From the IMG/VR virus record IMGVR_UViG_2534681675_000019: a DNA stretch of 41,266 nucleotides. One strand, 5' to 3'. Both the position numbers and the translations under genes were made by a program. A model generated the notes under the pieces. That model was not told where the DNA came from, did not search any database, and was given only the letters and a program-made list of their open reading frames with translations. The stretch comes from a virus. Taxonomy: Duplodnaviria; Heunggongvirae; Uroviricota; Caudoviricetes. Below are positions 1 to 40,120 of this stretch, piece by piece (the first letter of the stretch is position 1; each line of letters starts with the position of its first letter).

Positions 1-1257
1 GTGCTTACCGATACAAAATTAAAAAACCTCAAGCCGCAGGACAAACTGTACAAGGTCTCCGATCGTGACGGGCTGTATGTAGCTGTGCTTACGTCAGGCA
101 CGGTCTCGTTTCGCTATGACTACCGTATCAACGGTCGCCGCGAAACACTGGTAATCGGGCAGTATGGGCGTGACGGTATCAGCCTGGCAGAAGCGCGAGA
201 AGAACTGATTGCTGCAAAGAAGCTGCTTAAAGCAGGCCAGTCACCGGCTGCGGCTAAACGTGACGGTATCAAAAAGATTCGTGGTGCCGAGACGTTTACG
301 GTACATACCGACAGTTATATGAAACACGTCATCCTGGCTGACAGTACCCGCGCAATGAAGCAGGCGGTGATCGACCGTGACATACTTCCAGTTCTTGGCA
401 ACAAAATGATGACTGAAATTACCACATCGATGGTTCGTGATTTGTGTGACCGGATTGTCGAACGCGGTGGTCGGGCAACAGCAGTACAGGCAAGGGAGAT
501 CATCAGCAGCGTATACCGTCACGCCAATGACCGTGGTCATGGTTTGTTTAATCCTGCGGCTGACATTAAACCTTCGTCTATCGCCATATTTAAACCAAGA
601 GAGCGAACACTGACACCAGAAGAAATTGGCCTGTTCTTCCGCACGCTGGATGCCATTGGTGCTATGGGCACTATGAAAATGGCTTTAAAGCTGGTGCTTA
701 TCACTATGGTTCGTAAAGGCGAATTCACCAACGCAACGTGGGATGAAATAGATTTTAAAAAATGGACATGGACAATTCCTTCAGACCGCATGAAGGGAAG
801 CCGGGCGCACGTTATTTACCTGCCTAAACAGGCTCAGGATATATTGGTCGGGTTGCAGATGTGCGCTGGTGGAAGTGAATATCTGGTTCCTGGTCGTTAC
901 AATTTCCGGAAGCCATTATCTAATGCCGCGCTGAACTCTCTGATCGACAGAACGGTGAAAATAATAAATGAAGATGGTGAGCATATTCAGGGCTTCACCG
1001 TACACGATATGCGCCGTACAGCCAGTACGTTGTTGCATGAGGCTGGTTATCCTTCAGACTGGATTGAAAAGGCTCTGGCACATGAGCAGAAAGGTGTGCG
1101 CGCCGTATATAACAAAGCGGAATACGCCAGACAGCGCGCCTACATGTTGCAGCAGTGGGCCGATATGATTGATTCCTGGATTAACGGGGAGCATACGGAT
1201 CTGATTCCGTTCTCCCCGTCGAAGTTTGAGAGGTGGATGGAAGACAGTAATAAATAA
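1..1257 (+). CDS. Tyrosine integrase, P4-type
   Basis: 418-aa ORF starting with GTG at nt 1, so the N-terminus may be clipped by the window edge. N-terminal LTDTKLKNLKP...YKVSDRDGLY block typical of P4-like integrases; C-terminal HDMRRT...LAH...Y catalytic region. Confidence 0.85.
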   Translation: MLTDTKLKNLKPQDKLYKVSDRDGLYVAVLTSGTVSFRYDYRINGRRETLVIGQYGRDGISLAEAREELIAAKKLLKAGQSPAAAKRDGIKKIRGAETFTVHTDSYMKHVILADSTRAMKQAVIDRDILPVLGNKMMTEITTSMVRDLCDRIVERGGRATAVQAREIISSVYRHANDRGHGLFNPAADIKPSSIAIFKPRERTLTPEEIGLFFRTLDAIGAMGTMKMALKLVLITMVRKGEFTNATWDEIDFKKWTWTIPSDRMKGSRAHVIYLPKQAQDILVGLQMCAGGSEYLVPGRYNFRKPLSNAALNSLIDRTVKIINEDGEHIQGFTVHDMRRTASTLLHEAGYPSDWIEKALAHEQKGVRAVYNKAEYARQRAYMLQQWADMIDSWINGEHTDLIPFSPSKFERWMEDSNK

Positions 1258-1259
1258 TT

Positions 1260-1919
1260 CTATCCTTCCTGGACTTTGGTAAGCGTCAGATTTCCGCAGA
1301 ACACTGCGCCGGTGTCGATGTACATTTGGTTTGCATACACCAGTGGGTGATGTGCTGGCGTATGACCGAAGATGAACAAATCGGCACCGGTTATCTCCGA
1401 GACAATACCGTCCTGCGCGTCGCTAACCCGCTCACGATTCCATATCACCATTTCTTCCGGTACTGGCTTATCGAATGCGTATTCGTTGTGCGGGTAGTCT
1501 GCGTGGCAGATGACGACCTTCTTATTGCCGGTAACCAGTTCGATAATCATCGGGAGGTTGGTAACCTTTGGCAGAAGGTATTTGAGTTGCACATCCTGCT
1601 CAGAATCAAGTTGGTGCCACCATCCACCGCCGTTTGACATCCAATGTCCGAAACTTCCGCCGTTGACCAGTGCATCCAGCATCATCTGCTCATGGTTGCC
1701 ACGAACAGCTCGGAACCACGGCATAGTAATCAAATCCAGGCATTCGACGTTTTCAGCGCCGCGGTCAACAAGGTCACCAACGGAAATAAGCAAATCGCGC
1801 GCCGGGTCGAATGAAACTTTGTCGAGTTCGTTCATCAGCAGCGTGTAGCACCCATGCAGATCTCCGACGACGAAGATATTGCACCAGTCAGCGCCATTGA
1901 TGCGTTGATATAGGTTCAT
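1260..1919 (-). CDS. Ser/Thr protein phosphatase, PPP family (lambda-PPase/PrpA-like metallophosphatase)
   Basis: Motifs GDLHG, GDLVDRG and GNHE seen in the translation. Start placed at internal ATG 1919 (MNLYQRING...), which overlaps the stop of the upstream methylase; the ORF track extends to 2039. Confidence 0.8.
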
Positions 1920-2566
1920 GCTGCACGCTCCCGCCCCTGGTTGTCTGTTGGTGACAGCGGAGCATTGCTGAATGCATTTGTTAATCCGCCAATATCCAAC
2001 GCGTATCCAGGATGTAGTTGCACTGCCGGGTCTTCGCACTGATTACCCCAAACATCGAAACCATGAGACGACTGGCGGGCGAACAGTTCAATGCGAGAAA
2101 CATCGCCTAACAATTGCACAAGTTTTTCACGAACGACATCTGGTTTTCTTGAATGCTCAAGCCGCGGTGCGGTAAATGACTGAACGATCCCTGCATTAAT
2201 GCGTGGAGGTAGTTTTCCCTTTACTGCAAACAGGCAATCTTCACTATTGGCGCGAGTCATGTGTCCCATACCCATAACCAGTTTATCTGGTTGTCGACTA
2301 CCACATTTTATCCACGTGAAGCCCTTCATGGTCATCAGACGGAATCCCCAGGCTTCAACAACTTTTAGTGCTTCGAGTGGTTGTGTTGGCACCCACCACA
2401 TGGCCAACAGACAGTTTTCATCGGCCAAATCCCACACAGGAAGGCGGCAAATATCCAGCACACTCATAACCGGATATTTAAAACCGGCACCGCGATTACC
2501 ATCCGCGGCTTTGTCCCGGTATACCCAGGGTGGATCTGCATAGATTAGTGTGTATTTCTTAGTCAT
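1916..2566 (-). CDS. MT-A70 family DNA N6-adenine methyltransferase (orphan phage methylase)
   Basis: DPPW motif ([10 protein letters not shown]) near the N-terminus. ATG at 2566; alternative GTG at 2578. Stop overlaps the phosphatase start. Confidence 0.8.
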
Positions 2567-2858
2567 AAACCACCCCACAACATCCTATGCCGCTATAGTC
2601 GCCACGGCGAAGGCCGTTACCTTTTGTGATACATTGGTCCCTGCGAACCGCGATCCTTGCACGCTCAACATCACCAGAAGCAACATCCATACACTGAAGC
2701 CAAAGGTGGGCGGCAATGCGGAACTGCCCTTTTTTCTCTCTTTCAATCGCGCGTTTTTCGATCTCTATCGCCGCAGGAGTAACGGCAACAACCTTTGAAT
2801 GGCTGCGCATTGAAACCTTGTTCATGTGATATTTTTCAAGTCGGCTTAACTTTCTCAC
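2559..2858 (-). CDS. Hypothetical phage protein
   Basis: 99-aa ORF with GTG start at 2858 preceded by a GAGGG Shine-Dalgarno; same strand and tight spacing with the leftward operon. No family recognised. Confidence 0.4.
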   Translation of the reverse strand: MRKLSRLEKYHMNKVSMRSHSKVVAVTPAAIEIEKRAIEREKKGQFRIAAHLWLQCMDVASGDVERARIAVRRDQCITKGNGLRRGDYSGIGCCGVVYD

Positions 2859-2967
2859 TTAATCCAACCCTCTCTGAAAATTAATGCCAGCAGATAAAGC
2901 CATGCTGAAACAGAGGCCAGGAATAAGTACCATCCTGACCATTTGCTCCAGTGCCTTAGCAGCACAC

Positions 2968-3216
2968 TCATGCCGCGTTGCTCACAGGACGATATACACG
3001 TTGCTGAACAGGAGGTTTTTTACCCTGGAACTCTGCCGGGCTTGCTGCCTGACGTTCATCAAGCCAACGCTCAACTTCATCACGGTTCCATGCGCAGCGT
3101 TTGTCAGTGATATACCAGCGTTTAGGAAATTCCCCTGCGCGCTCCATACGGTCGATAGTGCTCCATGACAGTGGCACCACCGCCAGGAGTTCCTTCTTAC
3201 CTAATGCACCTTTCAT
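2968..3216 (-). CDS. AlpA-family DNA-binding protein (excisionase/regulator candidate)
   Basis: 82 aa; LSWSTIDRMERAGEFPKRWYIT...WNRDEVERWL resembles the AlpA/Xis-type helix-turn-helix; sits in the integrase-proximal early region. Confidence 0.6.
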   Translation of the reverse strand: MKGALGKKELLAVVPLSWSTIDRMERAGEFPKRWYITDKRCAWNRDEVERWLDERQAASPAEFQGKKPPVQQRVYRPVSNAA

Positions 3217-3265
3217 AAATACCTCTCTTGGTTGCAGTGCGGCGCGCGTGGCGCCGCGGTGGTGG

Positions 3266-4147
3266 TTACATAGATGTTTCGTTTAATTCTTCCCGACGAG
3301 CGCTGTAAACGTCGGTGGCTTTTGCCAGCAGTTCGTCATCATCTGAAAGTTTTTGTGCAATGTATTTGTAAGCCTTATCCAGTTCGGAGACAGTGCTGTA
3401 ATTCATCGCTGCGCTGGTAAAGGCCATCAGCATTTCTTCTGGATCACGGCTATCCGCTTTACGCGTTTGCTCATCATGCTTTTTCGCTGGTTTAGCGTTG
3501 ATCAGACTGTTCATTCCCGCAGCAGTAGTCGTTTGTGGAGTAATGTCTCGCTCAACGCGCGGTGCCGTTTCCTGTAATTCGTCAGGGGTGTAAACACCGA
3601 GAAGCACATCAGGAGCGTGCAGGCGAGCCCATCGTTTCGTGCAAAGATAGGCAAGCTGCTGGCGCGGATCCTGTTCCCACAATGGAGAGTTACGCACTCC
3701 GGCTTGCGCCATACTGATGGTAAGCTCACGGGGTTCTGCTTCTCCTTTAAGAACTGCTGACACAGTTACCGTCAGATTCGGTGATTTATCTGTTTTGCCG
3801 TTAACATTCGACCAGTCACCGCTCCAGCGATAATTCAGGCGTGTCGCCAGCAGGCTGGAAGAGGATACGACCGCGTTTACCAACTGTGCTTCGTAGCCTA
3901 ACGTTCCGTTTACCACATGCGTTTTCTGCGCCACGGCGAAAGGGTTCATTCCCCACTGTGCCGCCTGCATGGTCACCGCCAGGCAATCGGCAGGTTTGCC
4001 TTCAAGATGTTTCGGTACAGTCGCTTTGCTTTGTGACATCAACTCCGCGAAACGCACCAGTTGATTCATGCCCTCGGGGCTGAAGATTGCCGCAGCAGTG
4101 CCTACAGTTGCGCCTGGTTGTGATGTGATTGCGATATCATTGCTCAT
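3266..4147 (-). CDS. ssDNA-annealing recombinase, Bet/RecT-like
   Basis: 293 aa; ERDITP block and overall resemblance to Bet/RecT proteins (from memory); start overlaps the stop of the upstream exonuclease (ATGA), the classic exo-annealase pairing. Confidence 0.6.
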   Translation of the reverse strand: MSNDIAITSQPGATVGTAAAIFSPEGMNQLVRFAELMSQSKATVPKHLEGKPADCLAVTMQAAQWGMNPFAVAQKTHVVNGTLGYEAQLVNAVVSSSSLLATRLNYRWSGDWSNVNGKTDKSPNLTVTVSAVLKGEAEPRELTISMAQAGVRNSPLWEQDPRQQLAYLCTKRWARLHAPDVLLGVYTPDELQETAPRVERDITPQTTTAAGMNSLINAKPAKKHDEQTRKADSRDPEEMLMAFTSAAMNYSTVSELDKAYKYIAQKLSDDDELLAKATDVYSARREELNETSM

Positions 4148-4965
4148 ACGTACATATCCTGTTTACGTGCCCAGTCAGGGCGTTTAATAATTTCCACTCC
4201 GCCCCATTCATCGTTGATGCGGCATTCGTGATAGGTATTCAGATCCCGGCGGAACAGAGCGTGCCCGGCATCGACATCCGGCGCATCCAGCTCGAACACG
4301 CGTACCGGATACCGACCACAATCAATGCTTTCGCTCACGGCAAGAAAGAAAAAACCATGCGGCTGACCAGTAACCCTCATTGCGCCTTCGCGGTACATTG
4401 CGTCCTGCACGTGGTAGCGGAATTCCTCGATGTGGCGTGCAAAACGGTCCATATCTGCAACCTTTTTCACGTCGACGATCACGTTGTGCTCGTTCAGCCA
4501 TTTGTCTGGACGAATTCGGCACAACTCACCCGTATCTTCATCGTTCCAGTACATTGATGCTTCGCAGTAACCAGGTGCTTCCAACATCCAGCGTGCCGCC
4601 GGGTGAGCCATTGCGCTATCACGCATCAGCTCCAGTTTCCGCCACTGCTCGGCATCAAGTACAGTAATCCCCATATCCGCCACATCACGAAGAAATGCAT
4701 CTTCGTCAGCTTTACCTTGTTTCGTCCGACGATCGAATTTCGGCGAAACAATGAAGCGTTTGTCGAACTCTCCAGGCTCCAGAAGCAGACAGTGCAATGC
4801 GGTTCCCATATCCAGTGCAGACTTTTTCTCTTCGTCTTCTGGTGCTGCCTGAACCCATTTAAGAAGCGCCGGATTCTTGGCAACCATGTCCAGTTGCGAC
4901 TTACTCACGCCGTCCCCGGCGTGGTAGTCTTCGTTGCTGATGTCGAAATAAATTCCCGGTTTCAT
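4144..4965 (-). CDS. Phage exonuclease, PD-(D/E)XK-type partner of the annealase
   Basis: 273 aa, translationally coupled upstream of the Bet/RecT-like gene; acidic/aromatic blocks consistent with YqaJ/RecE-like nuclease folds. Assignment is mainly by synteny. Confidence 0.5.
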   Translation of the reverse strand: MKPGIYFDISNEDYHAGDGVSKSQLDMVAKNPALLKWVQAAPEDEEKKSALDMGTALHCLLLEPGEFDKRFIVSPKFDRRTKQGKADEDAFLRDVADMGITVLDAEQWRKLELMRDSAMAHPAARWMLEAPGYCEASMYWNDEDTGELCRIRPDKWLNEHNVIVDVKKVADMDRFARHIEEFRYHVQDAMYREGAMRVTGQPHGFFFLAVSESIDCGRYPVRVFELDAPDVDAGHALFRRDLNTYHECRINDEWGGVEIIKRPDWARKQDMYV

Positions 4966-5261
4966 GCCGCTTCCCTCTGCCCATCAATCCGATCCGCCAG
5001 ATCCCAGCGGGCGATAATTGCCATTGCCTCTCGCCGGTAGGCATCCATCAGTTCTTCGAACTCAGGGCTGTCTTTAGCAGCCTCCAGTACTTCCTGGCGA
5101 ACTCCTTTGCCTGTTACAGCGTCAAAAGTTGAGGCCAGTTGATGAAGCCGGATGCTATCGATCAGTTCAACTTGTCGGTCATATAGCTGTTCTGACAGGC
5201 GGTAGTCCTTGTCGAATGCCAGCATGATTTTTTGAAGATTTTTCTGCTGATTAACGTTCAT
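4962..5261 (-). CDS. Hypothetical early protein
   Basis: Start set at ATG 5261 (MNVNQQ...), which has a GGAGGG Shine-Dalgarno 7 nt upstream; the track ORF begins 5 codons earlier at 5276. Confidence 0.45.
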   Translation of the reverse strand: MNVNQQKNLQKIMLAFDKDYRLSEQLYDRQVELIDSIRLHQLASTFDAVTGKGVRQEVLEAAKDSPEFEELMDAYRREAMAIIARWDLADRIDGQREAA

Positions 5262-5263
5262 TA

Positions 5264-5416
5264 TCAGCCCTCCCATATCTCGTTATCGTTGGCCACATCG
5301 CGAGCTTCTTTGCTGACGAAAGCCCACTTAATGCCTTCCTGTAAGGTGCGGAACTTCCAGCTCATGAATCCGCATGCAGTAACGCAGTACCAACCGTTGA
5401 TGATTTTCCACTGCAT
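5264..5416 (-). CDS. Small hypothetical protein (50 aa), first gene of the leftward operon
   Basis: ATG at 5416 with a GAGGT Shine-Dalgarno; stop TGA sits 2 nt before the next start; below the ORF-track length cutoff. Translation MQWKIINGWYCVTACGFMSWKF... Confidence 0.3.
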   Translation of the reverse strand: MQWKIINGWYCVTACGFMSWKFRTLQEGIKWAFVSKEARDVANDNEIWEG

Positions 5417-5569: not shown

Positions 5570-6154
5570 TTATTGTTTGTTTTTTTCGTTCTGGTTGATG
5601 ACAAATTCAATGTAACTTTCGATCTTTGCTTTCTCGGTTTCAGGTAACAATGCGTAGCGCGAGCGGTCATAGTTGATAGTTGCAGGATCGTGCGGGTGAA
5701 TCAGTAGTTCATATCCGTGACGCCCGAATGCAGATGCAACATTCTCCAGGGTGGAAATGGAAACGCTGACCTCATTGTTTAACAGGCGGCTGATTGTCAC
5801 CTGGGCGACGCCGGATGCGCGGTGAAGTTTTCCCTGTGTTGAAAGGTCGCGGCTTTCGCTCATCCAGCGTTCCAGGTTGTGAGCCGCTAGCTGACCAATG
5901 TCGCTTGGGCCGACAGGCTGAAAACCTTCCTGAGAAAGCGAGCGATCGATATCAAGCCAGTTACGGGGTTTATTGGCGGCAGCTTCAATTTTTCGCGCAA
6001 CCTGGTCGCCGATAACCTTCTTGCCAAGAGCCCAGCGGTTTACCAGATTTGCCTGAGTTCCAAGTTTTTCTGCCATCCGCGTCTGAACACCATTGAATTC
6101 ACGGTCGATCAAGTCGTTGAGATTTTGCCTGCGGACGTCCTGGATACTTTTCAT
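5570..6154 (-). CDS. Prophage repressor, CI-like, tandem HTH, no peptidase S24 domain
   Basis: 194 aa; two XRE-type HTH segments (QTRMAEKLGTQANLVNRW and ASGVAQVTISRLLNNE); divergent from a Cro-like gene across an operator-rich spacer; no Ala-Gly/Ser-Lys autocleavage module visible. Confidence 0.7.
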   Translation of the reverse strand: MKSIQDVRRQNLNDLIDREFNGVQTRMAEKLGTQANLVNRWALGKKVIGDQVARKIEAAANKPRNWLDIDRSLSQEGFQPVGPSDIGQLAAHNLERWMSESRDLSTQGKLHRASGVAQVTISRLLNNEVSVSISTLENVASAFGRHGYELLIHPHDPATINYDRSRYALLPETEKAKIESYIEFVINQNEKNKQ

Positions 6155-6209: not shown

Positions 6210-6272
6210 TTACCCAACAGGTAAATGCACCCCATAGGTAACTATCCTTGATTTTTGTTACCTTATGGGTGA
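6210..6272. promoter_or_regulatory. Divergent immunity promoter/operator region (OR-like) with three TTACC-N5-GGTAA-type sites
   Basis: 6210-6224 TTACCcaacaGGTAA; 6227-6241 gcACCccataGGTAA (half-degenerate); 6258-6272 TTACCttatgGGTGA; between repressor start (6154) and Cro-like start (6309). Confidence 0.55.
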
Positions 6273-6308: not shown

Positions 6309-6539
6309 ATGAGCGATAACGGACATTTCGATTTCAAAAAGCACTGGCTTGCACTTACTCCGGATGAGCGTGAAGCCTTCGCACAGGAAGCCGGAACGAC
6401 GAGTCACTATATCCAGACTCACTTAACAGGTAAGCGCAAAATGCCAGGTAAGGTATTGATGGATGGGCTTTTTAAAGCCTGTAAATCAAGACAATGGCTG
6501 CGCTCAAAAGCAGAACTGGCATACTTCTTCTACTCATGA
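6309..6539 (+). CDS. Cro-like small HTH regulator
   Basis: 76 aa; HTH-like segment FAQEAGTTSHYIQTHLTGKR; first rightward gene opposite the repressor. Confidence 0.5.
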   Translation: MSDNGHFDFKKHWLALTPDEREAFAQEAGTTSHYIQTHLTGKRKMPGKVLMDGLFKACKSRQWLRSKAELAYFFYS

Positions 6540-6905: not shown

Positions 6906-7697
6906 ATGAGCAGACATGCAACAGATTGGGCCTGGGAGACAGATCCAGGTAGCTCATCATTAAAGCTCATACTGCTCTCGATGGCTGACAGAGCCGATGA
7001 ATATAACCTCTGCTACCCCAGCATAGAACGCCTCGTTAAAGACACTTGCCTGAATAAAAAAACCGTGCAGGCCGGACTTATATCGCTCATGAAAATGGGG
7101 CTTATTTCAGATACCGGAGAGAGAAAGGGAGCGACGAAAAGAGTGCGGGTTTTCTCTCTTAATATAACCAAAAACGGGAACATTAAAGGCAACCGAGAAG
7201 GGGGTAATGAACCCGAAAACGGTAATGTTACCGAAAACGGGAATATACCCAAAAACGGGATGTTGAATGATCCCAAAAACGGGATCCAGAACCAGTCATA
7301 TAACCAGTCATTTAACCAAGAGAGGGAGAGCAGGACAAAAACCGGGGATTCTGTGCCTCATGACCCCGGCGCAAACAACGCCGTGATGAATAACTTTGTT
7401 CCTCCTGGTGGGCCAGGGCAATTAGGCAAATTTGTCATGCATGAACAATGGCAGCCATCAGATGACTTTCTTCGGAAAAGCTCATTGCAGGGAATCTACC
7501 TTGACAGTCTGCCAACGGCACAGGAACTTGCAGAGTTCAGAATTTACTGGATGGCTGAGGGTAAGGCATACCATCAGGCACAGTGGGAGCAGAAGCTGGC
7601 AAGGCGGCTGCAGATTAGCAGACAGAAGCTATCAACATTACCTGATAACAACGTTCCGCACTGGAACAGCCCTGAAGCATGGGAGGATTTCTTGTGA
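6906..7697 (+). CDS. Replication initiator, lambda O-like
   Basis: 263 aa; N-terminal winged-helix-like block; iteron repeats lie inside the coding sequence and encode an NG-rich linker; immediately upstream of a P-like gene. Confidence 0.65.
   Translation: MSRHATDWAWETDPGSSSLKLILLSMADRADEYNLCYPSIERLVKDTCLNKKTVQAGLISLMKMGLISDTGERKGATKRVRVFSLNITKNGNIKGNREGGNEPENGNVTENGNIPKNGMLNDPKNGIQNQSYNQSFNQERESRTKTGDSVPHDPGANNAVMNNFVPPGGPGQLGKFVMHEQWQPSDDFLRKSSLQGIYLDSLPTAQELAEFRIYWMAEGKAYHQAQWEQKLARRLQISRQKLSTLPDNNVPHWNSPEAWEDFL
7168..7286. repeat. Origin iterons: five direct repeats CC(A/G)AAAACGG(G/T)A
   Basis: Copies begin near 7168, 7213, 7231, 7249 and 7273; three consecutive copies are 18 bp apart; followed by an ACCAGTCAT x2 repeat. 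Confidence 0.6.
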
Positions 7698-18571: not shown

Positions 18572-18579
18572 GAGAGGAA

Positions 18580-29148: not shown

Positions 29149-29153
29149 ATTAA

Positions 29154-31628: not shown

Positions 31629-31637
31629 GGAACAACA

Positions 31638-32051: not shown

Positions 32052-32054
32052 GTC

Positions 32055-32367: not shown

Positions 32368-32387
32368 AACTGTATGTTTATACAGTA
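32368..32387. promoter_or_regulatory. LexA (SOS) box
   Basis: AACTGTATGTTTATACAGTA matches TACTGTATATATATACAGTA at 17 of 20 positions, with CTGT-N8-ACAG intact and an AT-rich spacer; overlaps a TATAAA -10-like hexamer on the minus strand. Confidence 0.65.
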
Positions 32388-32424
32388 GCAAATAATTTGT
32401 TTGCTATCCAGCACGTTTTGCGAA

Positions 32425-32439
32425 TCACCTGAAAGGTAA
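32425..32439. promoter_or_regulatory. TCACC-N5-GGTAA site in the divergent region between the small gene and the tailspike
   Basis: TCACCtgaaaGGTAAT; 37 bp from the LexA box. Confidence 0.45.
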
Positions 32440-32543: not shown

Positions 32544-34796
32544 ATGACGGTCTCAACCGAAGTTGACCACAACGAATACACAGGCAATGGCGTTACGACT
32601 TCATTCCCTTATACCTTTAGGGTTTTCAAGGAATCTGATCTGGTAGTGCAGGTGGTTGACCTTGACGAAAATATCGCTGTGCTGGCTCTTGATACTGATT
32701 ACACTGTCACTGGGGCTGGTGGATATAACGGCGGTAATGTAATTCTGTCGAAGGCGTTAGCTAACGGTTACCAGATTTCTATATCACGAGAGCTCCCGGT
32801 TACGCAGGAAACTGATTTGCGTAATCAGGGGAAGTTCTTTGCAGAAGTGCATGAGGATGCTTTTGATAAGCTAACGATGCTGATCCAGCAGGTTCGAAGT
32901 TGGTTTAGCTTGGCGCTGCGCAAGCCGTCATTCGTAGCAAATTATTATAACGCGCTGAACAACTATATTCGGAACCTGAAAGACCCGGTTAACCCGCAGG
33001 ATGCAGCCACAAAGAATTATGTGGACAGCACGGCTTTATCGAACATCAACCATACCATCCGAGTTCCTGACGCTTATATCGATCCGCTGCCACCACTCGC
33101 TCAGCTTGAAGGCAGCATTATCGGCATTCAAAACGGGAAGCCTGTTCCTTTCCCTGTGCCTTCAGGAACGGCGGCGGACGTATTCAACCAGTTGGCCAGC
33201 AGCGCTGACGGGAAAGGTGATGCGCTGATAACAGTGAAGCAGCCTTACCAGGGGGCAACTTCTCTTTCGCAGCATATAAAAAATGCACAGGCTATAAGTG
33301 TTGTTGATTTTGGAGCGACAATTGATGGATCTCTCCACCCTTTAAGTGAAGTTTTCTCAACACTCTCAGCGGCACAGATGGTATATCCATTTGTTACGTC
33401 TCTCACGCAATCGTTGGATTATGCGGCGCTGCAGGCCGCATGTAATACTGGTAAAAAGGTGCTAATCCCAAAAGGTCTTGGATATTATAATGCCACAATT
33501 ATATTTAATAATTCAGTCAGAATTGTTGGTGAAGGGACTGATGCAATAAACCGTTCTCAGTCTTTCATGTCAATTGTTGGGAATATATCAGCCTTCGCAT
33601 TAGCTCAGGGTAGCTCAACATCAACGAAAATGATCCAGATTTTCATTGATGGCCTTTATATCTTTTATAACCCTGGCTCTACCCCAACAAACTCATCAAC
33701 AGACGGCGGCAAGGTAGCTTTTAATTTCTACTCAACAGTCCCTAATTCTACTGGGCTGGAAATGTCAGAAATTAAAAATTGTACAGTTCATGGGGCGTGG
33801 TCGTGCTTTAATGACCAGACAGGAACCTATCTTACAAAGCTTACGAATGTGTGGGCCAGGAACTGTCATAATGGTTTTACCAAAGGAACTGGCACAACAA
33901 TCCTTCTGGAAAGATGTTATGCATCTGGTTGTATTTCTCCTTACCAGTTTGGTTCTGTCTTCGCGGTTACAATGATTAACTGCGCGATGGATGGATCAAA
34001 TATTTCATTAAGCGCCGGGACGCTTGGAGGGGCTGGAGTTCACATCCTTAACACGCACAGTTTCAATATTATTGGCTTTGATGCAGAGGGAAACACCATC
34101 TCTACGGATGGAGCTGGAGAAGCTGCGCTGTTCCATTTTGAGAATAGTAGTGGTGGCTTATCCGGGCTTACCGCACATCAGAACAGCATGCGAAGTGTTG
34201 CGCCAAGTGATGCTGGTGTAGTTTCCTACATCAGGGCGTCAGGTAGCAGCGATGTTAAAATTGAGTCATCAGAAGATGATTTATCTGACACCAACCCAGT
34301 TGCATATACTGGGTCTGGGTATCCCATTATGTTACATGCAATAGACACAGCTAAAATAAGTGTCTTTAATAGCCGGTTCAGAGCAACCACTACAGGAACT
34401 CCTGTTTTAAGTACGCTAAGTACTGGTGATGTATCATGGTATGACTGCCCTAAAAAAACAGGACTTATCGCCAATGGTTACTCGCAGACTACATCTCAGG
34501 AAGGGTTGCAAACATCATGCTTCTCTACCAGTAAAGGCTCTACTTCTGTGGCTGCAAATACCCCGACAACACTTTTTTCTCTGCCAAATTCTCAAGGCAC
34601 TTACATTATCAGCGTTTGGGGATCTGGTAGTGGGACAAACTATGCGTCAACGCAGTTAGCAATGTATGATGGAACTTTGTATCTTACGGCATTGAAAGCT
34701 GCAGCGTTCCTGACATTTACTGTAACCGGAAGAATAGTAACCCTGACGAGCCAGGGGGCTGGAACTTTTAGTTGGACTTACACGAAAATAGGTTAA
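32544..34796 (+). CDS. Tailspike/tail fiber with T7 gp17-like N-terminal adaptor domain
   Basis: 750 aa; N-terminal YTGNGVTTSFPYTF...TDYTV...RELPVTQETDL...AEVHEDAFDKL parallels the T7 gp17 N-terminus (from memory); the C-terminal two-thirds is visibly AT-rich and Ser/Thr/Gly/Asn-rich, consistent with a receptor-binding module. Confidence 0.7.
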   Translation: MTVSTEVDHNEYTGNGVTTSFPYTFRVFKESDLVVQVVDLDENIAVLALDTDYTVTGAGGYNGGNVILSKALANGYQISISRELPVTQETDLRNQGKFFAEVHEDAFDKLTMLIQQVRSWFSLALRKPSFVANYYNALNNYIRNLKDPVNPQDAATKNYVDSTALSNINHTIRVPDAYIDPLPPLAQLEGSIIGIQNGKPVPFPVPSGTAADVFNQLASSADGKGDALITVKQPYQGATSLSQHIKNAQAISVVDFGATIDGSLHPLSEVFSTLSAAQMVYPFVTSLTQSLDYAALQAACNTGKKVLIPKGLGYYNATIIFNNSVRIVGEGTDAINRSQSFMSIVGNISAFALAQGSSTSTKMIQIFIDGLYIFYNPGSTPTNSSTDGGKVAFNFYSTVPNSTGLEMSEIKNCTVHGAWSCFNDQTGTYLTKLTNVWARNCHNGFTKGTGTTILLERCYASGCISPYQFGSVFAVTMINCAMDGSNISLSAGTLGGAGVHILNTHSFNIIGFDAEGNTISTDGAGEAALFHFENSSGGLSGLTAHQNSMRSVAPSDAGVVSYIRASGSSDVKIESSEDDLSDTNPVAYTGSGYPIMLHAIDTAKISVFNSRFRATTTGTPVLSTLSTGDVSWYDCPKKTGLIANGYSQTTSQEGLQTSCFSTSKGSTSVAANTPTTLFSLPNSQGTYIISVWGSGSGTNYASTQLAMYDGTLYLTALKAAAFLTFTVTGRIVTLTSQGAGTFSWTYTKIG

Positions 34797-35104
34797 TGTT
34801 ATTTTAGGGGAGCGATGCTCCCCATCATCAATTAAAAAATAAACTGTCCATCATTTTTTAGTTTTTTACCAAACTCCCTTGAGCCTTCCAGAGTGAAATG
34901 GCTATTGTCAAAGTAAAGATAATCACCTTTCTTTGATAGAATGTCACAATTCATAGCCTTTCCGCACTGCTCGGCAAGCGTATCTATGTATTTATACGAA
35001 TGCTGGTTGCTACTAGACTGGCCCCCTGAATCTCCAGACAACCAGTATCACTTAAATAAGTGATAGTCTTAATACTAGTTTTTAGACTAGTCATTGGAGA
35101 ACAG

Positions 35105-35470
35105 ATGATTGATGTCTTAGGGCCGGAGAAACGCAGACGGCGTACCACACAGGAAAAGATCGCAATTGTTCAGCAGAGCTTTGAACCGGGGATGACGGTC
35201 TCCCTCGTTGCCCGGCAACATGGTGTAGCAGCCAGCCAGTTATTTCTCTGGCGTAAGCAATACCAGGAAGGAAGTCTTACTGCTGTCGCCGCCGGAGAAC
35301 AGGTTGTTCCTGCCTCTGAACTTGCTGCCGCCATGAAGCAGATTAAAGAACTCCAGCGCCTGCTCGGCAAGAAAACGATGGAAAATGAACTCCTCAAAGA
35401 AGCCGTTGAATATGGACGGGCAAAAAAGTGGATAGCGCACGCGCCCTTATTGCCCGGGGATGGGGAGTAA
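35105..35470 (+). CDS. insC: IS2 transposase OrfA (InsC)
   Basis: 121 aa, [24 protein letters not shown]...; HTH; ends just past the AAAAAAG frameshift site. Confidence 0.85.
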
Positions 35471-36333
35471 GCTTAGTCAGCCGTTGTCTCCGGGTGTCGC
35501 GTGCGCAGTTGCACGTCATTCTCAGACGAACCGATGACTGGATGGATGGCCGCCGCAGTCGTCACACTGATGATACGGATGTGCTTCTCCGTATACACCA
35601 TGTTATCGGAGAGCTGCCCACGTATGGTTATCGTCGGGTATGGGCGCTGCTTCGCAGACAGGCAGAACTTGATGGTATGCCTGCGATCAATGCCAAACGT
35701 GTTTACCGGATCATGCGCCAGAATGCGCTGTTGCTTGAGCGAAAACCTGCTGTACCGCCATCGAAACGGGCACATACAGGCAGAGTGGCCGTGAAAGAAA
35801 GCAATCAGCGATGGTGCTCTGACGGGTTCGAGTTCTGCTGTGATAACGGAGAGAGACTGCGTGTCACGTTCGCGCTGGACTGCTGTGATCGTGAGGCACT
35901 GCACTGGGCGGTCACTACCGGCGGCTTCAACAGTGAAACAGTACAGGACGTCATGCTGGGAGCGGTGGAACGCCGCTTCGGCAACGATCTTCCGTCGTCT
36001 CCAGTGGAGTGGCTGACGGATAATGGTTCATGCTACCGGGCTAATGAAACACGCCAGTTCGCCCGGATGTTGGGACTTGAACCGAAGAACACGGCGGTGC
36101 GGAGTCCGGAGAGTAACGGAATAGCAGAGAGCTTCGTGAAAACGATAAAGCGTGACTACATCAGTATCATGCCCAAACCAGACGGGTTAACGGCAGCAAA
36201 GAACCTTGCAGAGGCGTTCGAGCATTATAACGAATGGCATCCGCATAGTGCGCTGGGTTATCGCTCGCCACGGGAATATCTGCGGCAGCGGGCTTGTAAT
36301 GGGTTAAGTGATAACAGATGTCTGGAAATATAG
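35428..36333 (+). CDS. insD: IS2 transposase OrfB (InsD), DDE catalytic domain
   Basis: 301 aa, [30 protein letters not shown]...; overlaps orfA in the -1 frame at AAAAAAG (35422-35428). Confidence 0.85.
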
Positions 36334-38063
36334 GGGCAAATCCAGCTACCAAGATAGCCTTTTATCGTATTGTTAATTTCAACTCTACTATTGTCATAAT
36401 ACTTTTTAGAGTATTTATTTATCCCATCAATTGTGTTTACGCCAGATTTAAAAGCAGACTTAATTATTTCCATTGGCTGTGCCGTAAACTTCATCTTAGG
36501 CCCAAATACAATAACTTCTCCTTTAGTCCTCTCCTGTATTTTGCCTATAGAGTAAAGCATCCCGAACAGATCGCCAACGCCATAATCATCATGAAGGATT
36601 ATAATGTTAGCTTCAGCTATGGCTGGAGATGAGATCACGTCATTGAATATTTTTTTGCACTTTTCTACATAGGGCATGTCGTTTGGTGTATAACCAAAGT
36701 TTGAACATAAGTTTGTAGTTCTTATATAAGTTATATCACCCTTCATCCCATTTTCAGTAAGTGCATAAGTCAGATCTATGCCATGAGAATTACCGATTAT
36801 TACTATTTTTTTGTCACCTGTCTTCGGTACAGGGTGAGGCTTGTCTCCATCAACCCAATACCTGTTCATTTGTTCTTTTAGCTGTTCGGACGTCATTGTG
36901 GCAAACGAAAACCTTGATGGAATTCCAGATAGCAATAGTACAGCGAAGCACAAACCAACTACACCACCTACAGGTAGCACGATTGAAGTTAATTCATTCA
37001 AGGACCTGCCGTTTTTAAATTTTGAAAGTGCCTTTCTTGAAGGGTTTTCAATTAAATAAAATGATGCGGCACCAATAAGAATTGATAAGGCAACACCTGA
37101 TACTGTATAAACCATATCATCCATCTTATTCATTGACATATAGACAACTATGGGCCAGTGAACCAGATATACCGAGTATGAAATTTTCCCAACCCATTGA
37201 GATAATGCATTATCAAGTAACAGGTTATCTTTACATCCAAGATAAATGACAAAGAAAGTAGAAACGACTGGTATTAAGGCAAGATACCCAGGCCACTTCA
37301 TTAAGCTGTTAAGCAAGACTATCCCCGATACTGCAAAGGCTATGGCAATCCATCTAAATACAGCAGTGCGTTTTGAATTTTGTATAGTAGGAAGAAGGTA
37401 GGCAAGGCCGCCAGCCAGCATCTCCCAAGCTCTGCTTGACAGAAGATAAAATGCAGCCCCCTGATTATTATAAGAAAGATACACTGAGGCAGTAAATGAT
37501 ATAATTGCAAGGATGGCAACAACATACCTTATATGCTTAGCGCCCAATAGCTTTGCAATTGCCATCATTATGATTGGATATACCATGTAAAACTGCCACT
37601 CTACAGAAAGCGACCATGTATGAAGAAGCCATTTCTGCTTTGATGCAGTGTCAAAATAATCAATGCTATGGTAATACTCAACGTTTGAGAAAAATAAAAG
37701 GCTACTTCTTACGTGTTGAGCCAGGTATTCATATTCAGAAGGCAAAAGAATGAAGTAACCAACTATCAGAACAGCAACTGAAACTACAGTTAAAGCTGGT
37801 ATAATCCTTCTTGCCCTATCAAGATAAAATCCTAACAGTGAAAAGTTTCCATTAGATATCTTTGTGTAAATTATTCCAGTCATCAGATACCCTGATATAA
37901 CAAAGAATATATCTACGCCTGAAAACCCACCAGAAAACCCTTTGACTCCGAAGTGATAAAGGACAACTGCCATGACAGCAATAGCCCTGAGTCCGCCTAT
38001 ATCAGTTCTGTATTTTAAAGAAGACATAATCGCTATCGTTTTGAGTAAGATGCGTTAATGATA

Positions 38064-38078
38064 TCACCTTTAGGGTAA
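38064..38078. promoter_or_regulatory. TCACC-N5-GGTAA site in the divergent region between the acyltransferase and the lysis genes
   Basis: TCACCtttagGGTAAT. Confidence 0.45.
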
Positions 38079-38183
38079 TTTCGTTAAGAGTTATCCGATC
38101 AAAATTAATCCACATATGGTTTATTGTGTATGATGAACTCACCAACTAAGGGGGTTCTTTATGCACAATAAACGGTGGTCACT

Positions 38184-38585
38184 ATGGCGCATGTGCTGAC
38201 AACAGAGTCAGTAAATCAGGGGTTAAGCCTGACTGCACTGGCGTCCGTGTTCGTTGGTATACCGCCTGAGGTGGCTTTAGGTGCTCTTGCTGGTGCGGTA
38301 ATTTTTGTTACCTCTGCGGTAGAGTACCCAATTCATCGTCGCGTACTCTTATCGATGCTTAGCTTTCTCTGCGGACTTCTTTTCTATAAACCAGCAGCAT
38401 CAATTCTTATCGGCATAGCCAGCCTGATCCCTACCATCACGCAGGACTCTTTCGAGAAAGGGATTGTTTTCTCTGCTGGTGCATTCGTGTCAGCAATCGT
38501 TGCAGTTCGAATTGGCATCTGGCTCTATCACCGTTCCGATAATCCACGCGAGTTAATTCCGGGGAGAAAAGGCGATGGTAACTAA
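38184..38585 (+). CDS. Holin-like membrane protein
   Basis: 133 aa from ATG 38184; about four hydrophobic helices and a charged C-terminus; first gene of the lysis cassette. Confidence 0.5.
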   Translation: MAHVLTTESVNQGLSLTALASVFVGIPPEVALGALAGAVIFVTSAVEYPIHRRVLLSMLSFLCGLLFYKPAASILIGIASLIPTITQDSFEKGIVFSAGAFVSAIVAVRIGIWLYHRSDNPRELIPGRKGDGN

Positions 38586-38883
38586 TGAGCTTGTTTTGCT
38601 TATCACCAATGCACTTATTTGTACTGGCATAGCAATTCGTGTTGTCACATTCCGGCGTAACGGTTCACAACATCGAAGGTGGGGAGGGTGGCTTGCTTAT
38701 TTCCTTATTGTTGCTGCGGCCAGTATTCCTGTTCGTGTCGTCTATGCAATCTGGTTACGCACGCCAATGGCTGTGGATTTATCTGAGGTCATTATCAACG
38801 CTGTCATGCTTGCTGCGGTTCTTAAAACTCGCGGTAACGTCGTTCAGATTTTCAAAATAACGAGGTCTAAACATGGAGATTAA
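38575..38883 (+). CDS. Holin/antiholin-like membrane protein
   Basis: 102 aa with two to three hydrophobic helices; overlaps its neighbours; immediately upstream of the endolysin. Confidence 0.45.
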
Positions 38884-39499
38884 ACAATTCCAGCGAGCTG
38901 CTGGTATTAGCGAGGCGCTGGCCGCACGCTGGTTCTCGCATATAACTTCTGCGATGAAAGAGTTTGGTATCAGCAAACCAGAAGATCAGGCAATGTTTAT
39001 TGCTCAGGTCGGGCATGAGTCTGGAGGCTTCACCCGGCTGCAGGAGAACTTCAACTACAGCGTGACTGGGCTGGCGGGATTCGTCCGTGCCGGGCGCCTC
39101 ACTCAGGGCCAGGCCAACGCGCTGGGCCGTCGTGCTGGTGAGCCATCGTTACCGCTGGAGCGCCAGCGTGCGATCGCCAATCTGGTGTATAGCAAGCGCA
39201 TGGGGAACAACGGGCCGACTGACGGCTGGTTTTACCGTGGGCGCGGGCTTATCCAGATTACCGGTTTGAATAACTATCGTGACTGCGGAAACGGTCTAAA
39301 AGTGGACCTGCTGGAGAATCCTGAGCTGTTGACGCAGGACGAATACGCGGCCCGCAGCGCGGCGTGGTTCTTCGCCAGTAAAGGTTGTATGAAGTATCCA
39401 CGCGACCTGGTGCGCGTCACGCAGATTATCAACGGTGGCCAGAACGGTATCGACGACCGGCGATCGCGTTACGGTGCTGCCTGTAAGGCGCTGTTATGA
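38873..39499 (+). CDS. Endolysin, glycoside hydrolase family 19-type
   Basis: 208 aa; [10 protein letters not shown] and [15 protein letters not shown] blocks characteristic of GH19 lysozymes. Confidence 0.8.
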
Positions 39500-39978
39500 T
39501 CTGGGCATTTGTCAAAGCATACTGGAAACAGTTGCTTATCATGGCGATGCTTGCTGCGCTGGTTGTCATCGGTGTGGTTGCCTGGAATGTTCACGGTGAC
39601 CTGCAGTATGCCGCCGGCTATGAGCAGGCAAAGACAGACCGTAAAGCCCAAGATGATAAAGCTCGTCAGCACTACGAACAGGAGAAATCGATCAATGAAC
39701 GTGAAGTGCAGCAGAGGATCGACCAGGCGCGCAATGATGCTCTTGATGCTGCCGCTCGCGCTGGCCGGTTGCAGCAACAGCTCGTTGCCATCCGTGAGCA
39801 GCTCAGGCACTATAACGCCATTGTCGGCGCTGGGTCGTCAGCCGCAGATACCGGAGTTTTGCTTGCCGACGTGCTCAGCAAATCTCTCGAGAGAAACAGA
39901 CAACTGGCAGAGTATGCTGACCGGGCAGCCGAAGCCGGAAGAGTCTGCGAAAAACAGTACGACACCCTGACCAGATAG
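39496..39978 (+). CDS. Rz-like inner-membrane spanin
   Basis: 160 aa; N-terminal transmembrane helix then coiled-coil; start overlaps the endolysin stop. Confidence 0.6.
39734..39970 (+). CDS. Rz1-like outer-membrane lipoprotein spanin, embedded in Rz in the +1 frame
   Basis: 78 aa, [17 protein letters not shown] (lipobox LAGC), Pro-rich mature part, fully inside the Rz gene. Confidence 0.55.
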   Translation: MMLLMLPLALAGCSNSSLPSVSSSGTITPLSALGRQPQIPEFCLPTCSANLSRETDNWQSMLTGQPKPEESAKNSTTP

Positions 39979-40120
39979 CATGGCATTTTTCATGGTACTG
40001 ATTTCCGGTGACGGTATATAAAACGGTACGGGAAAAATTCATCTTTGGAAAAATGTTATCACTCAATTGGTTATGGTGTCCGTAAATAATTGAGTGGGAA
40101 TGATTTGATCCCTGCACTAT

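Follow-up and report, generated by a model that had tools for sequence, protein, structure and literature searches.

Ends and integration site of the prophage

The window, meaning the whole 41,266-nt stretch of DNA that was analysed, holds a prophage at positions 1 to 40105, which adjoins the host genes yfgI and yfgH.

1-1257 (+): P4-type tyrosine integrase, 418 aa (Pfam Arm-DNA-bind_3, Phage_int_M and Phage_integrase; NCBIfam PRK09692, E 2e-44)
40089-40105 (no strand): attR core ATTGAGTGGGAATGATT, a copy of the guaA 3' end, which closes the prophage on the right (FT130 attL and phiV10 attP compared)
40196-41266 (-): host genes yfgI and yfgH (RefSeq annotation; matching E. coli chromosomes)

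The prophage is placed at the 3' end of guaA by an integrase whose three Pfam domains and PRK09692 match bear out its earlier assignment to the P4 type. In FT130 the same integrase gene follows guaA, and the core ATTGAGTGGGAATGATT and the guaA target have been published for phiV10, epsilon15 and ZX5 (PMC9782041). guaA remains intact because the phage brings its own copy of the final codons of the gene. The attL site is not within the window; going by FT130 and phiV10, it would be found about 190 nt ahead of position 1, where the integrase gene starts. A temperate podovirus-type prophage had been placed at 1-40000 in a previous, sequence-only reading; the element is indeed found there, but in fact ends on the right with the attR core at 40089-40105.

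The lysogeny switch

5570-6154 (-): Rep, prophage repressor with HTH domains (Pfam HTH_3 only; full-length phmmer match to 5D50_A, 'Repressor' of SPC32H, E 4e-42)
6309-6539 (+): Cro-like regulator (phrog_35, transcriptional repressor)
32091-32348 (-): ant, 85-aa antirepressor (phmmer 5D50_E 'Anti-repressor protein', 1.6e-47; phrog_450)
32370-32389 (-): LexA box TACTGTATAAACATACAGTT (pattern search; homologous boxes in phiV10 and SPC32H)

The solved Rep/Ant/LexA switch of SPC32H has its counterpart here in Rep, Ant and the LexA box. Ant is 85-89% identical to its counterparts in the Salmonella phages epsilon15 and SPC32H/SPN1S, whose Rep is homologous as well (5D50); in SPC32H, the one phage of these in which both features were checked, a LexA box precedes ant and TTACC-N5-GGTAA sites are present, as in the prophage. 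Rep has no S24 peptidase domain in Pfam. The LexA box stands 21 nt upstream of the ant start codon, with a Rep-type palindrome nearby (32425-32439). The role of LexA-controlled Ant has been described (PMC7380047), as has the breaking up of Rep tetramers by Ant (PMC9638917). Homology and position suggest that LexA and Rep bind these sites and that induction proceeds as experimentally shown for SPC32H: lysogeny would be held by Rep, a repressor presumably incapable of self-cleavage, DNA damage would cause LexA to leave the box before ant, and the 85-aa Ant would then strip Rep from its operators. This SOS-antirepressor circuit had been regarded as an addition to the epsilon15/phiV10 layout; it is present (LexA box and ant) but is not an addition, ant being found in all 35 phage records that matched, and in epsilon15, phiV10 and SPC32H.

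Most transcription units are headed by a TTACC-N5-GGTAA palindrome. There are 13 copies in the window (0.78 expected), 14 in phiV10 (0.64 expected) and 18 in SPC32H (0.65 expected), a count reached in none of 100 shuffles in any of the three. Two sites, at 6210 and 6258, lie within the rep-cro intergenic region, and in the best candidates for the PL and PR promoters the -35 or -10 is overlapped by the palindrome. The palindrome is probably the Rep operator. Alternatively, it could be bound by another conserved regulator, for example the 113-aa phrog_536 protein (see below); the half-sites of the palindrome are the same in SPC32H even though the Rep of that phage is only about 50% identical. 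Rep operators at most units would explain why a Q-type antiterminator is not needed. As already proposed, no Q-like antiterminator came up when all ORFs lying between P and TerS were scanned with Pfam and PHROGs; the absence is common to the relatives checked, no Q being annotated in phiV10, PAS61 or SPC32H.

Replication module and early genes

1260-5276 (-): leftward early operon (Pfam matches; annotation of PAS61 and phiV10)
6906-7697 (+): replication initiator with N-terminal HTH_36 and C-terminal DnaT domains (Pfam; NCBIfam DnaT)
7160-7285 (no strand): five iterons with core ACCNAAAACGGGA, putative origin within the initiator gene (repeat search, TRF, sequence)
7679-8479 (+): lambda-P-type helicase loader (Pfam Phage_lambda_P, 1.3e-56; 31% identity to lambda P, E 1e-35)
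8597-12324 (+): accessory region with DUF1064, Ead/Ea22, DUF551 and others (PHROGs, Pfam)

The early operon encodes a NinI-like metallophosphatase (missing from phiV10), an MT-A70 methylase, PerC-like and AlpA-like proteins, RecT, a PD-(D/E)XK exonuclease and a 104-aa protein. The accessory region, on which PADLOC was negative, closes with the 113-aa 'transcriptional regulator' (phrog_536).

The replication genes had been read as a lambda-type O, with iterons, and P pair. Profile match and identity confirm P, and the repeat search recovered the iterons, five copies of 18-21 nt within the initiator gene. The initiator itself, however, is not a lambda O homologue: it joins HTH_36 to a DnaT C-terminal domain (the NCBIfam DnaT match covers profile positions 86-169), shows no similarity to lambda O and has no Phage_rep_O match in Pfam. 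It fills the place of O, and its likeness to O is confined to the iterons within its own gene. The prophage shares with the lambda module the P homologue and the presence of iterons inside an initiator gene directly upstream of P, but differs from it in an initiator that lies outside the Phage_rep_O family of O, with a DnaT-like C-terminal domain, and in that no marked AT-rich stretch was found behind the iterons. For replication SPC32H, unlike the prophage, has just one protein (271 aa), and no lambda-P homologue is annotated in it. Replication would start at the five iterons, the putative origin, inside the gene of the winged-helix/DnaT-C initiator, which may recruit DnaB via the lambda-P-type loader.

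Accessory genes, lysis cassette and IS2

31638-32051 (+): predicted lipoprotein, 137 aa, lipobox LISAC (translation; phrog_8691)
35014-36344 (+): IS2 (IS3 family), 1331 bp (Pfam HTH_Tnp_1 and rve; inverted repeats; FT130 junctions)
36258-38027 (-): O-antigen acyltransferase (Acyl_transf_3), truncated (Pfam; intact 619-aa gene in FT130)
38175-39978 (+): lysis cassette of membrane protein, holin, GH19 endolysin and Rz-like spanin (RefSeq and phage annotations of homologues)

IS2, with a 5-bp target duplication (GCTAC), truncates the acyltransferase, which loses its last 58 aa including the DNSH (DxxH) motif. This insertion, together with a nozzle ORF 10 aa below its 823-825-aa relatives and a window that shows no attL, could be taken as signs of a defective remnant and not an inducible phage. 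We consider such decay unlikely: IS2 strikes only a lysogenic-conversion gene, dispensable for growth; no ORF for structure, replication, lysis or regulation is broken, and their lengths are those found in the infectious phages PAS61 and phiV10; and the attR core is intact.

Relationship to sequenced phages

The prophage is an ordinary member of the genus Uetakevirus, whose short-tailed temperate phages are well described. The left part (1-25000) shows 97-98% nucleotide identity over 81-88% to PAS61, phiv142-3, HEMP4 and ZX5, all Uetakevirus, and to PH444, an unclassified record; in the right half of the window, identity to the same phages is about 96% over 66-69%. Similarity over the whole prophage is about 0.76 to both PAS61 and phiV10 (one-way BLASTN), a value that suggests another species within Uetakevirus. 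Synteny with these two phages is gene for gene. The Escherichia members of the genus (phiV10, vB_EcoP_PAS61, phiv142-3, ZX5, HEMP4, TL-2011b) agree throughout with the prophage in gene order and content, with 96-98% nucleotide identity to it where sequence is shared, and have in common with it the attP core, the guaA target, Rep, Ant and its LexA box, the DnaT-like initiator and P, tRNA-Arg, the T7-type tail genes and the lysis cassette. About 22% of the prophage lacks a counterpart in PAS61 or phiV10; this fraction includes the ea22/eae accessory block (9160-11706), the gene for the 137-aa lipoprotein (a variable accessory gene missing from both phages), the receptor-binding part of the tailspike, the IS2-disrupted acyltransferase and the NinI-like phosphatase that phiV10 lacks. 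With the Salmonella phages epsilon15 and SPC32H/SPN1S there is synteny at the genus level, but their tailspike and O-antigen conversion genes are unlike those of the prophage; the Salmonella Uetakevirus records that were aligned (65FD, PAT1) show about 78% nucleotide identity.

The resemblance to epsilon15/phiV10-type temperate podoviruses, initially noted from the layout, is one of genus membership. Profile and fold matches likewise uphold the core of the sequence-only reading, namely T7-like tail and core genes with a lambda-P-type loader and a P4-type integrase. Its framing as a new kind of mosaic, in which lambdoid replication, a P4 integrase and an extra SOS-antirepressor circuit had newly been brought together with a T7-like virion module, is very improbable. 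The affinities of the modules do differ (T7-type tail, lambda P, P4-type integrase), and PAS61 and phiV10 offer no match for the 22% just described. However, the same combination occurs in the same order in phiV10, PAS61, ZX5, TL-2011b and others at 96-98% identity, phiV10 and SPC32H already carry ant with its LexA box, epsilon15 carries ant, and what fails to match falls in the spots that usually vary (ea22/eae region, tailspike receptor-binding part, acyltransferase, IS2). Near-identical sequenced phages have in practice already refuted this idea.

A virion on the T7 plan

12346-14510 (+): terminase small and large subunits, not T7-type (phrog_51, phrog_2; phiV10 annotation: TerL similar to P1 PacB)
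15901-19572 (+): T7-type portal (559 aa), 98-aa protein, prohead protease and epsilon15-gp7-type major capsid protein
20778-21386 (+): tail adaptor of T7 gp11 type, 202 aa (phmmer 8CK1_E, 1.6e-26; AF2 and Foldseek)
21386-23827 (+): tail nozzle of T7 gp12 type, 813 aa (phmmer 8CK1_A 'Tail Nozzle', 5.7e-220)
23827-24836 (+): two small internal virion proteins, gp13-like (154 aa) and gp14-like (181 aa) (Pfam, phrog_308, phrog_418)
24761-31628 (+): three large internal/ejection proteins of 837-862, 600 and 824 aa (PHROGs)
32544-34796 (+): tailspike with a T7-gp17-type anchor (about residues 1-155) and a variable receptor-binding part

The portal matches Pfam Head-tail_con (PF12236) at 2.3e-186, the major capsid protein Pfam GP7 at 2.1e-149 and the prohead protease phrog_458. 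No pairwise BLASTP similarity links T7 gp11, gp12 or gp17 to proteins of the window; profiles and folds do. The AF2 model of the adaptor (pLDDT 88.7) resembles Carin-1 8ck1_E (Foldseek, TM 0.83) and T7 gp11 7box_N (E 4.6e-6, TM 0.57, prob 1.0), as expected from its earlier reading as gp11-like. The same holds for the proposed gp12-like protein: it is a full-length homologue of the nozzle of Carin-1, described as a T7-like virus (PMC12407071), and among 10 T7 proteins its family HMM picks out only gp12, over the same region of both proteins (E 6.9e-7, a match of only 17 bits that is significant only in this 10-protein search space). The gp14-like protein scores 31.2 bits with Pfam T7_gp14 (cut-off 27), and the gp13-like assignment is weak (Phage_T7_Gp13, E 0.047). 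The first ejection protein carries a peptidoglycan hydrolase domain, its residues 249-398 matching the N-terminus of E1004 Gp29 (4.9e-38); the second and third gave no relatives in the PDB. The tailspike anchor belongs to family PF03906, detected in 41 of 51 family members, although the window's own N-terminus scores 20.8 bits, below the Pfam gathering threshold of 25.2. Its fold matches the T7 gp17 N-terminus (Foldseek, prob 1.0), so that the parallel drawn previously between the two is justified; phmmer finds Carin-1 Dpo31 (1.7e-26) and LKA1 gp49 (2.8e-15).

Portal family, adaptor fold, nozzle, gp14 family and fibre/spike anchor domain are shared with T7, Carin-1 (8CK1) and LME-1 (9EFK), and an ejection protein with a peptidoglycan hydrolase domain occurs in T7-plan podoviruses as in the prophage. 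The order portal-capsid-adaptor-nozzle-gp13-gp14-core-fibre is also the same, and sizes agree with those of T7 (T7/prophage: adaptor 196/202, nozzle 794/813, gp13 138/154 and gp14 196/181 aa), in keeping with the T7-like gene sizes and order noted between capsid and tailspike. Unlike T7, the prophage is temperate, has an unrelated terminase and lacks a phage RNA polymerase and DNA polymerase, ORFs of at least 300 aa being otherwise all accounted for; a prohead protease and an epsilon15-type capsid protein replace the gp9 scaffold and gp10, three core proteins are found instead of gp15 and gp16, and a tailspike instead of a fibre. Homology establishes a T7-plan virion with an epsilon15-gp7-type capsid, a prohead protease and a non-T7 terminase; the particle consists of portal, gp11-type adaptor, gp12-type nozzle, gp13/gp14-like proteins and three large ejection proteins, with six tailspikes anchored by the gp17-type N-terminal domain. 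That the block is instead P22-like or N4-like is scarcely credible: tailspike residues 212-276 resemble a segment of Sf6 and P22-type tailspikes and the adaptor has weak Foldseek matches to SU10, Moo19 and DEV tails (ranks 23-28), but for the portal, E is 3.6 with the P22 family and 2e-186 with that of T7, P22 gp4 appears in the adaptor search only at E 0.87, and the best adaptor and anchor folds (Carin-1, LME-1, T7, Kp7/Kp9, PhiM1, P-SCSP1u) are all from T7-plan tails.

A structured RNA beside the tRNA gene

14601-14972 (-): N4 gp49/Sf6 gene 66 family protein (Pfam PF13876, 2.4e-35)
15176-15252 (-): tRNA-Arg(UCU) (ARAGORN; Rfam tRNA, 73 bits)
15308-15494 (-): unannotated structured RNA, about 175 nt (covariance model R1, 164 bits; covariation counts)

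The tRNA-Arg(UCU) gene is kept in phiV10, PAS61 and SPC32H. Upstream of it, in the sense of transcription, lies an RNA with strong covariation and no match in Rfam. The arrangement in SPC32H is as in the prophage; in epsilon15 only a 27% stretch of the region was matched. P1-like and lambdoid phages have the RNA too, and 34% of complete E. coli genomes carry it.

Conclusions

With high confidence, the best overall explanation of the locus is a nearly complete Uetakevirus (epsilon15/phiV10-like) prophage of E. coli with a T7-plan virion and an SPC32H-type switch. No trait separates the prophage from its genus. Its mixture of T7-like, lambda-like and P4-like parts is real, yet already known; the sole novelty noticed is the unannotated folded RNA beside the phage tRNA gene.

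A Uetakevirus prophage at the 3' end of guaA

Both halves of the window were compared by megablast with 50,697 phage records, and near-identical Escherichia phages of Uetakevirus were retrieved. vB_EcoP_PAS61 (PAS61) covers 88% of window positions 1-25000 at 97.8% identity; phiv142-3, HEMP4, ZX5 and TL-2011b show 79-85% coverage at 97-98% identity, and phiV10 is 95.8% identical over 69% of the right half. In one-way BLASTN, the prophage has an aligned fraction of 0.784 and an identity-weighted similarity of about 0.76 with PAS61 and with phiV10 each. This value exceeds the genus limit (ICTV criterion: a genome-wide nucleotide similarity of about 70% or more) and falls below the species limit of 95%, placing the prophage within Uetakevirus by this one-way measure. 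Comparison of the ORF map of the window with the annotations of PAS61, phiV10 and SPC32H revealed the gene order of the genus (int, early left operon, rep/cro, replication, terminase, tRNA, portal-to-tailspike, conversion, lysis), and the ORF list matches the PAS61 and phiV10 maps gene for gene. The main interpretation of the sequence-only reading, a temperate podovirus of the epsilon15/phiV10 type, is thus correct.

The left edge of the window coincides exactly with the integrase start codon, and two host genes lie at the right end.

40196-40735, minus strand: yfgI
40751-41266, minus strand: yfgH

A related prophage occupies the same site in E. coli FT130, in which guaA is followed by the integrase gene. 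A 17-nt core, ATTGAGTGGGAATGATT, which includes the final guaA codons and the stop, is present at the guaA-int junction of FT130, in the phiV10 attP region and at positions 40089-40105 of the window (attR core). This shared core sets the end of the prophage at 40105 and attL just outside the window at the left. The same attP core and guaA target have been published for phiV10, epsilon15 and ZX5 (PMC9782041); integration at the 3' end of guaA through this core, with attL itself lying outside the window, is as found in Uetakevirus. The integrase is of the P4 type, as had been proposed: it has the CP4-57-like architecture of Arm-DNA-bind_3 (DUF4102), central and tyrosine recombinase catalytic domains (Pfam), its residues 2-392 match PRK09692 (2e-44, under the NCBI equivalog cut-off), and the phiV10 int gene is annotated cd00801 INT_P4.

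The architecture of this prophage was already known, since the genomes, attachment site and Rep/Ant/LexA switch of epsilon15/phiV10-like phages have been published. The gain is a clean annotation for another prophage of the guaA site.

Variable segments

Three segments are unshared with PAS61 and phiV10 by BLASTN, and these are the usual variable spots.

9160-11706: ea22/eae accessory block
31632-32053: small gene
33022-38109: from the receptor-binding part of the tailspike up to and including the O-antigen modification gene

The last segment carries an IS2 element of 1331 bp (35014-36344, target duplication GCTAC), whose insertion site is within the 3' end of the gene for the O-antigen acyltransferase (Acyl_transf_3).

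36258-38027, minus strand: O-antigen acyltransferase, 3' end disrupted by IS2

The element replaces the final 58 residues of the acyltransferase, where the intact FT130 allele has a DNSH (DxxH) motif; because of this loss, the serotype-conversion gene is probably inactive. The tailspike and the acyltransferase gene, with its likely inactivation by IS2, are relevant to serotype conversion and to the engineering of phage host range. The small unshared gene contains a 137-aa ORF (31638-32051, plus strand) with a predicted lipoprotein signal, MKELLLLSVFLISAC. It is absent from PAS61 and phiV10, the latter having a Bro-N protein at this site, and its predicted product has no match in Pfam or PADLOC; it may be a superinfection-exclusion or conversion gene. 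PADLOC detected no defence-system protein among ten accessory ORFs.

A T7-type structural module

The sequence-only reading had attributed T7-like tail and core genes to this phage. Pairwise BLASTP of the 202-aa (adaptor), 813-aa (nozzle) and 750-aa (tailspike) proteins against T7 gp11, gp12 and gp17 gave nothing significant; the adaptor, the nozzle and the three large core proteins have no match in Pfam, nor do the nozzle and core proteins in NCBIfam. The T7 kinship of the 202-, 813- and 750-aa proteins is visible only by profile and fold. In the Carin-1 tail, the homologue of the 202-aa protein is the "Connector Protein" (8CK1; E 1.6e-26). The AlphaFold2 model of the 202-aa protein (pLDDT 88.7) superposes on that chain with a TM of 0.83; against T7 gp11 (7BOX_N) the model gives E 4.6e-6, probability 1.0 and a TM of 0.57, and its top 24 fold matches are all podovirus adaptors. 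The 813-aa protein is homologous along its full length to the Carin-1 "Tail Nozzle" (E 5.7e-220). When a nozzle-family profile built from 50%-identity representatives was searched against ten T7 structural proteins, gp12 was the sole match (17 bits; E 6.9e-7, in a small search space), and the alignment occupies the same position in both (351-468 versus 351-466). The nozzle ORF (21386-23827, plus strand) encodes 813 aa versus 823-825 aa in close relatives, probably owing to an in-frame 30-nt deletion.

Residues 1-155 of the tailspike match domain 1 of the Carin-1 spike (1.7e-26). Alone, this N-terminus scores under the Pfam Phage_T7_tail cut-off (20.8 versus 25.2 bits); the same Pfam model recognises 41 of 51 tailspike-family members (8.9e-10 for the best), and a structural model of the anchor, of moderate confidence, retrieves only T7-plan fibre anchors, T7 gp17 included (probability 1.0). 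The parallel with gp17 drawn earlier therefore holds. As for the remaining components, the portal belongs to the T7 gp8 family (PF12236 at 2.3e-186), a 181-aa protein exceeds the Pfam T7_gp14 cut-off (31.2 versus 27 bits), a 154-aa protein has a weak Pfam match to gp13 (E 0.047), and the first large core protein has a peptidoglycan hydrolase domain resembling the N-terminus of a gp16-type protein. The sizes and order of the T7 genes are mirrored. Altogether, profiles, folds, gene sizes and gene order support the T7-like tail and core.

These T7-type parts (gp8 portal, gp11 adaptor, gp12 nozzle, gp17 N-terminal anchor) reflect the sharing of a structural module and not membership in Autographiviridae. 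The single-subunit RNA polymerase of that family was not found, all ORFs of at least 300 aa being otherwise assigned (Pfam, PHROGs, PDB). Unlike T7, the prophage lacks a phage RNA or DNA polymerase and has a prohead protease, a capsid protein of the epsilon15 gp7 type (PF20911 at 2e-149) and a terminase of another type. Carin-1 is itself described as a T7-like virus (PMC12407071), and the T7-plan tail of epsilon15/phiV10-like phages is known from solved structures of such relatives.

Replication genes

The proposal of lambda-type O/P replication stood in part. The P product is a lambda P homologue of the helicase-loader family (PF06992 at 1.3e-56; 31% identity in BLASTP, E 1e-35), and five iterons of 18-21 nt lie at 7160-7285, inside the initiator gene directly before P. 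What did not stand is homology to O: the initiator has no match to Pfam Phage_rep_O and no significant similarity to lambda O. In this gene, the iterons separate the coding sequence of the N-terminal HTH_36 domain from that of the C-terminal domain, which is homologous to the C-terminal half of host DnaT. The initiator, not itself an O-family member, probably takes the place of O and acts like it. E. coli members of Uetakevirus have the DnaT-like initiator plus P, whereas SPC32H, compared with window 6906-8479, has a single gene for a 271-aa replication protein (35116-35931 of its record) and no annotated lambda P homologue. The replication module thus varies within the genus.

The SOS-antirepressor switch

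At 32370-32389 is a very good LexA box, TACTGTATAAACATACAGTT, which precedes the start codon of the minus-strand ant gene by 21 nt; the CTGTAT-N4-ATACAG core of the box (32370-32385) would provide a putative LexA operator at the ant promoter. Ant was taken as 85 aa, the 126-aa ORF in the mechanical ORF list reflecting a too-early start. It matches the "Anti-repressor protein" chain 5D50_E (1.6e-47), and the 194-aa HTH repressor Rep matches the "Repressor" chain 5D50_A (4e-42), 5D50 being the complex of Rep with Ant from SPC32H, an epsilon15-like phage. Rep has no S24 domain in Pfam, so that the pair is of the SPC32H type: a small Ant homologue and a Rep homologue without self-cleavage domain. 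Two articles that cite Kim and Ryu 2013 and later work (PMC7380047, PMC9638917) state that LexA self-cleavage allows Ant production and that the Ant tetramer breaks up the Rep tetramer.

Matches to ant were found in 35 phage records, with 85-99% identity in epsilon15, phiV10, SPC32H and other E. coli, Salmonella and Tyrion records and 59-78% in Klebsiella and BUCT554 records. The LexA box preceding ant is kept in position in phiV10 and SPC32H. The SOS-antirepressor circuit is thus a trait of the genus that this phage did not add, contrary to the earlier claim.

Another LexA-like box, CTGTACTGGTTTACAG, is situated at 15045-15060, within the tRNA unit's trailer, and is conserved in phiV10 and PAS61. 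A role of this box in controlling the 123-aa gene was rejected, because a terminator separates the two and SPC32H has a degraded version; the box is probably non-functional.

Late control and a dispersed palindrome

Pfam and PHROGs scans of every ORF from P to the terminase (8597-12324) detected no Q-family antiterminator; the last gene before the terminase encodes 113 aa, and its PHROG carries the label transcriptional regulator. The absence of Q had been read correctly. No Q is annotated in phiV10, PAS61 or SPC32H either, and neither of the two features said to set this prophage apart from the genus does so.

The palindrome TTACC-N5-GGTAA occurs 13 times in the window versus 0.78 expected, a number reached in none of 100 shuffles.

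Sites of the 15-nt palindrome TTACC-N5-GGTAA (position in the window)
5436, 5498, 6210, 6258, 6595, 8517, 8579
12410, 12428, 15575, 32425, 38064, 38308

These sites head nearly every transcription unit. Two sites separate the rep terminator from the leftward early genes, another two occupy the rep-cro interval, one follows the cro terminator, two follow P and two fall in the 5' end of TerS; single sites precede the portal block, adjoin the ant LexA box and precede the lysis genes. In the best candidates for the PL and PR promoters, the -10 or the -35 overlaps a palindrome. phiV10 (14 sites) and SPC32H (18 sites) share this enrichment and placement, which there include a site upstream of int. 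We infer that the palindrome is probably the Rep operator. Possibly, in these phages one repressor directly controls nearly all transcription units through such dispersed sites, with no antitermination cascade; if the operator assignment is right, direct repression of many promoters would replace the Q cascade.

A structured RNA beside tRNA-Arg

If anything in the window is new, it is a folded RNA and not the phage. A 430-nt gap upstream of the portal block, in which the tRNA-Arg(UCU) gene lies, is near-invariant among the window, phiV10 and PAS61. G-U pairs assign the RNA to the minus strand.

15308-15494, minus strand: structured RNA, about 175 nt, six helices, upstream of the tRNA by transcription
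15176-15252, minus strand: tRNA-Arg(UCU), conserved in phiV10, PAS61 and SPC32H
14988-15015, minus strand: rho-independent terminator GCCCGGTTCGCCGGGC followed by seven T residues, after tRNA-Arg

With that terminator behind the tRNA, the structured RNA would share with it a single short transcription unit that stops before the 123-aa gene.

Copies of the structured RNA at other loci (coordinates)
L008 (phage SPC32H): 2974-3148
L009: 2560-2745
L010 (Stenotrophomonas phage BUCT709): 2498-2663
L011: 1981-2170
L012: 2053-2238
L018-L041 (24 bacterial loci)

The RNA is unannotated in the public records checked (RefSeq, GenBank). Beyond Uetakeviruses, unannotated copies occur in P1-like plasmid prophages (between trnI and ban in P1, P7, D6 and SJ46), in lambdoid phages (cdtI, twelve Stx2c phages and mEp390), in SopranoGao and in two Stenotrophomonas phages. 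The element is present in 1840 of 5426 complete E. coli genomes (34%) and in two dozen other Enterobacterales species.

In ten diverse copies, the six-helix structure is 98.2% paired, versus 27-48% with partners slid; seven pairs show compensatory changes, and none of 500 shuffles reached the observed covariation score. A covariance model retrieved full-length copies, at 117-189 bits, from 34 of 35 sources searched. These included 23 of 24 species-representative Enterobacterales loci chosen by an invariant 19-mer, the one without a match being L026. An alignment of 31 distinct sequences has 99.1% of its cells paired and shows covariation at 10 of 28 pairs; it was fitted to the model and thereby favours the structure. 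The minimum-free-energy z-score of a single sequence is not significant (-0.62), so the case for the RNA rests on covariation. Searches of Rfam 15, permissive thresholds included, gave no match for the RNA in the window or six other loci, and a full-text search for its invariant 16-19-mers turned up none among the papers covered. In BUCT709, directly 3' of the structured-RNA copy, is a sub-threshold Rfam match to RprA (2355-2474, minus strand; 50 bits versus a gathering score of 70).

Adjacency to a tRNA was rejected as a general trait of the RNA, being seen at only about 4 of the 24 bacterial loci. Most often the RNA closely follows a prophage repressor gene of the same strand: at 9 of 27 RNA loci, the gene for a cI-type repressor (HTH plus S24) precedes it by 114-306 nt. 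Expression of the RNA would most likely take place in the lysogen. That it represents an undescribed prophage RNA family made in the lysogen, for example as a processed stable RNA, is a tentative view to which we give slightly less than an even chance. Possible targets of such an RNA are, for instance, the host, superinfecting phages or the lysis-lysogeny switch. This widespread, unannotated structured RNA of enterobacterial temperate phages would, if truly undescribed, be worth experimental study.
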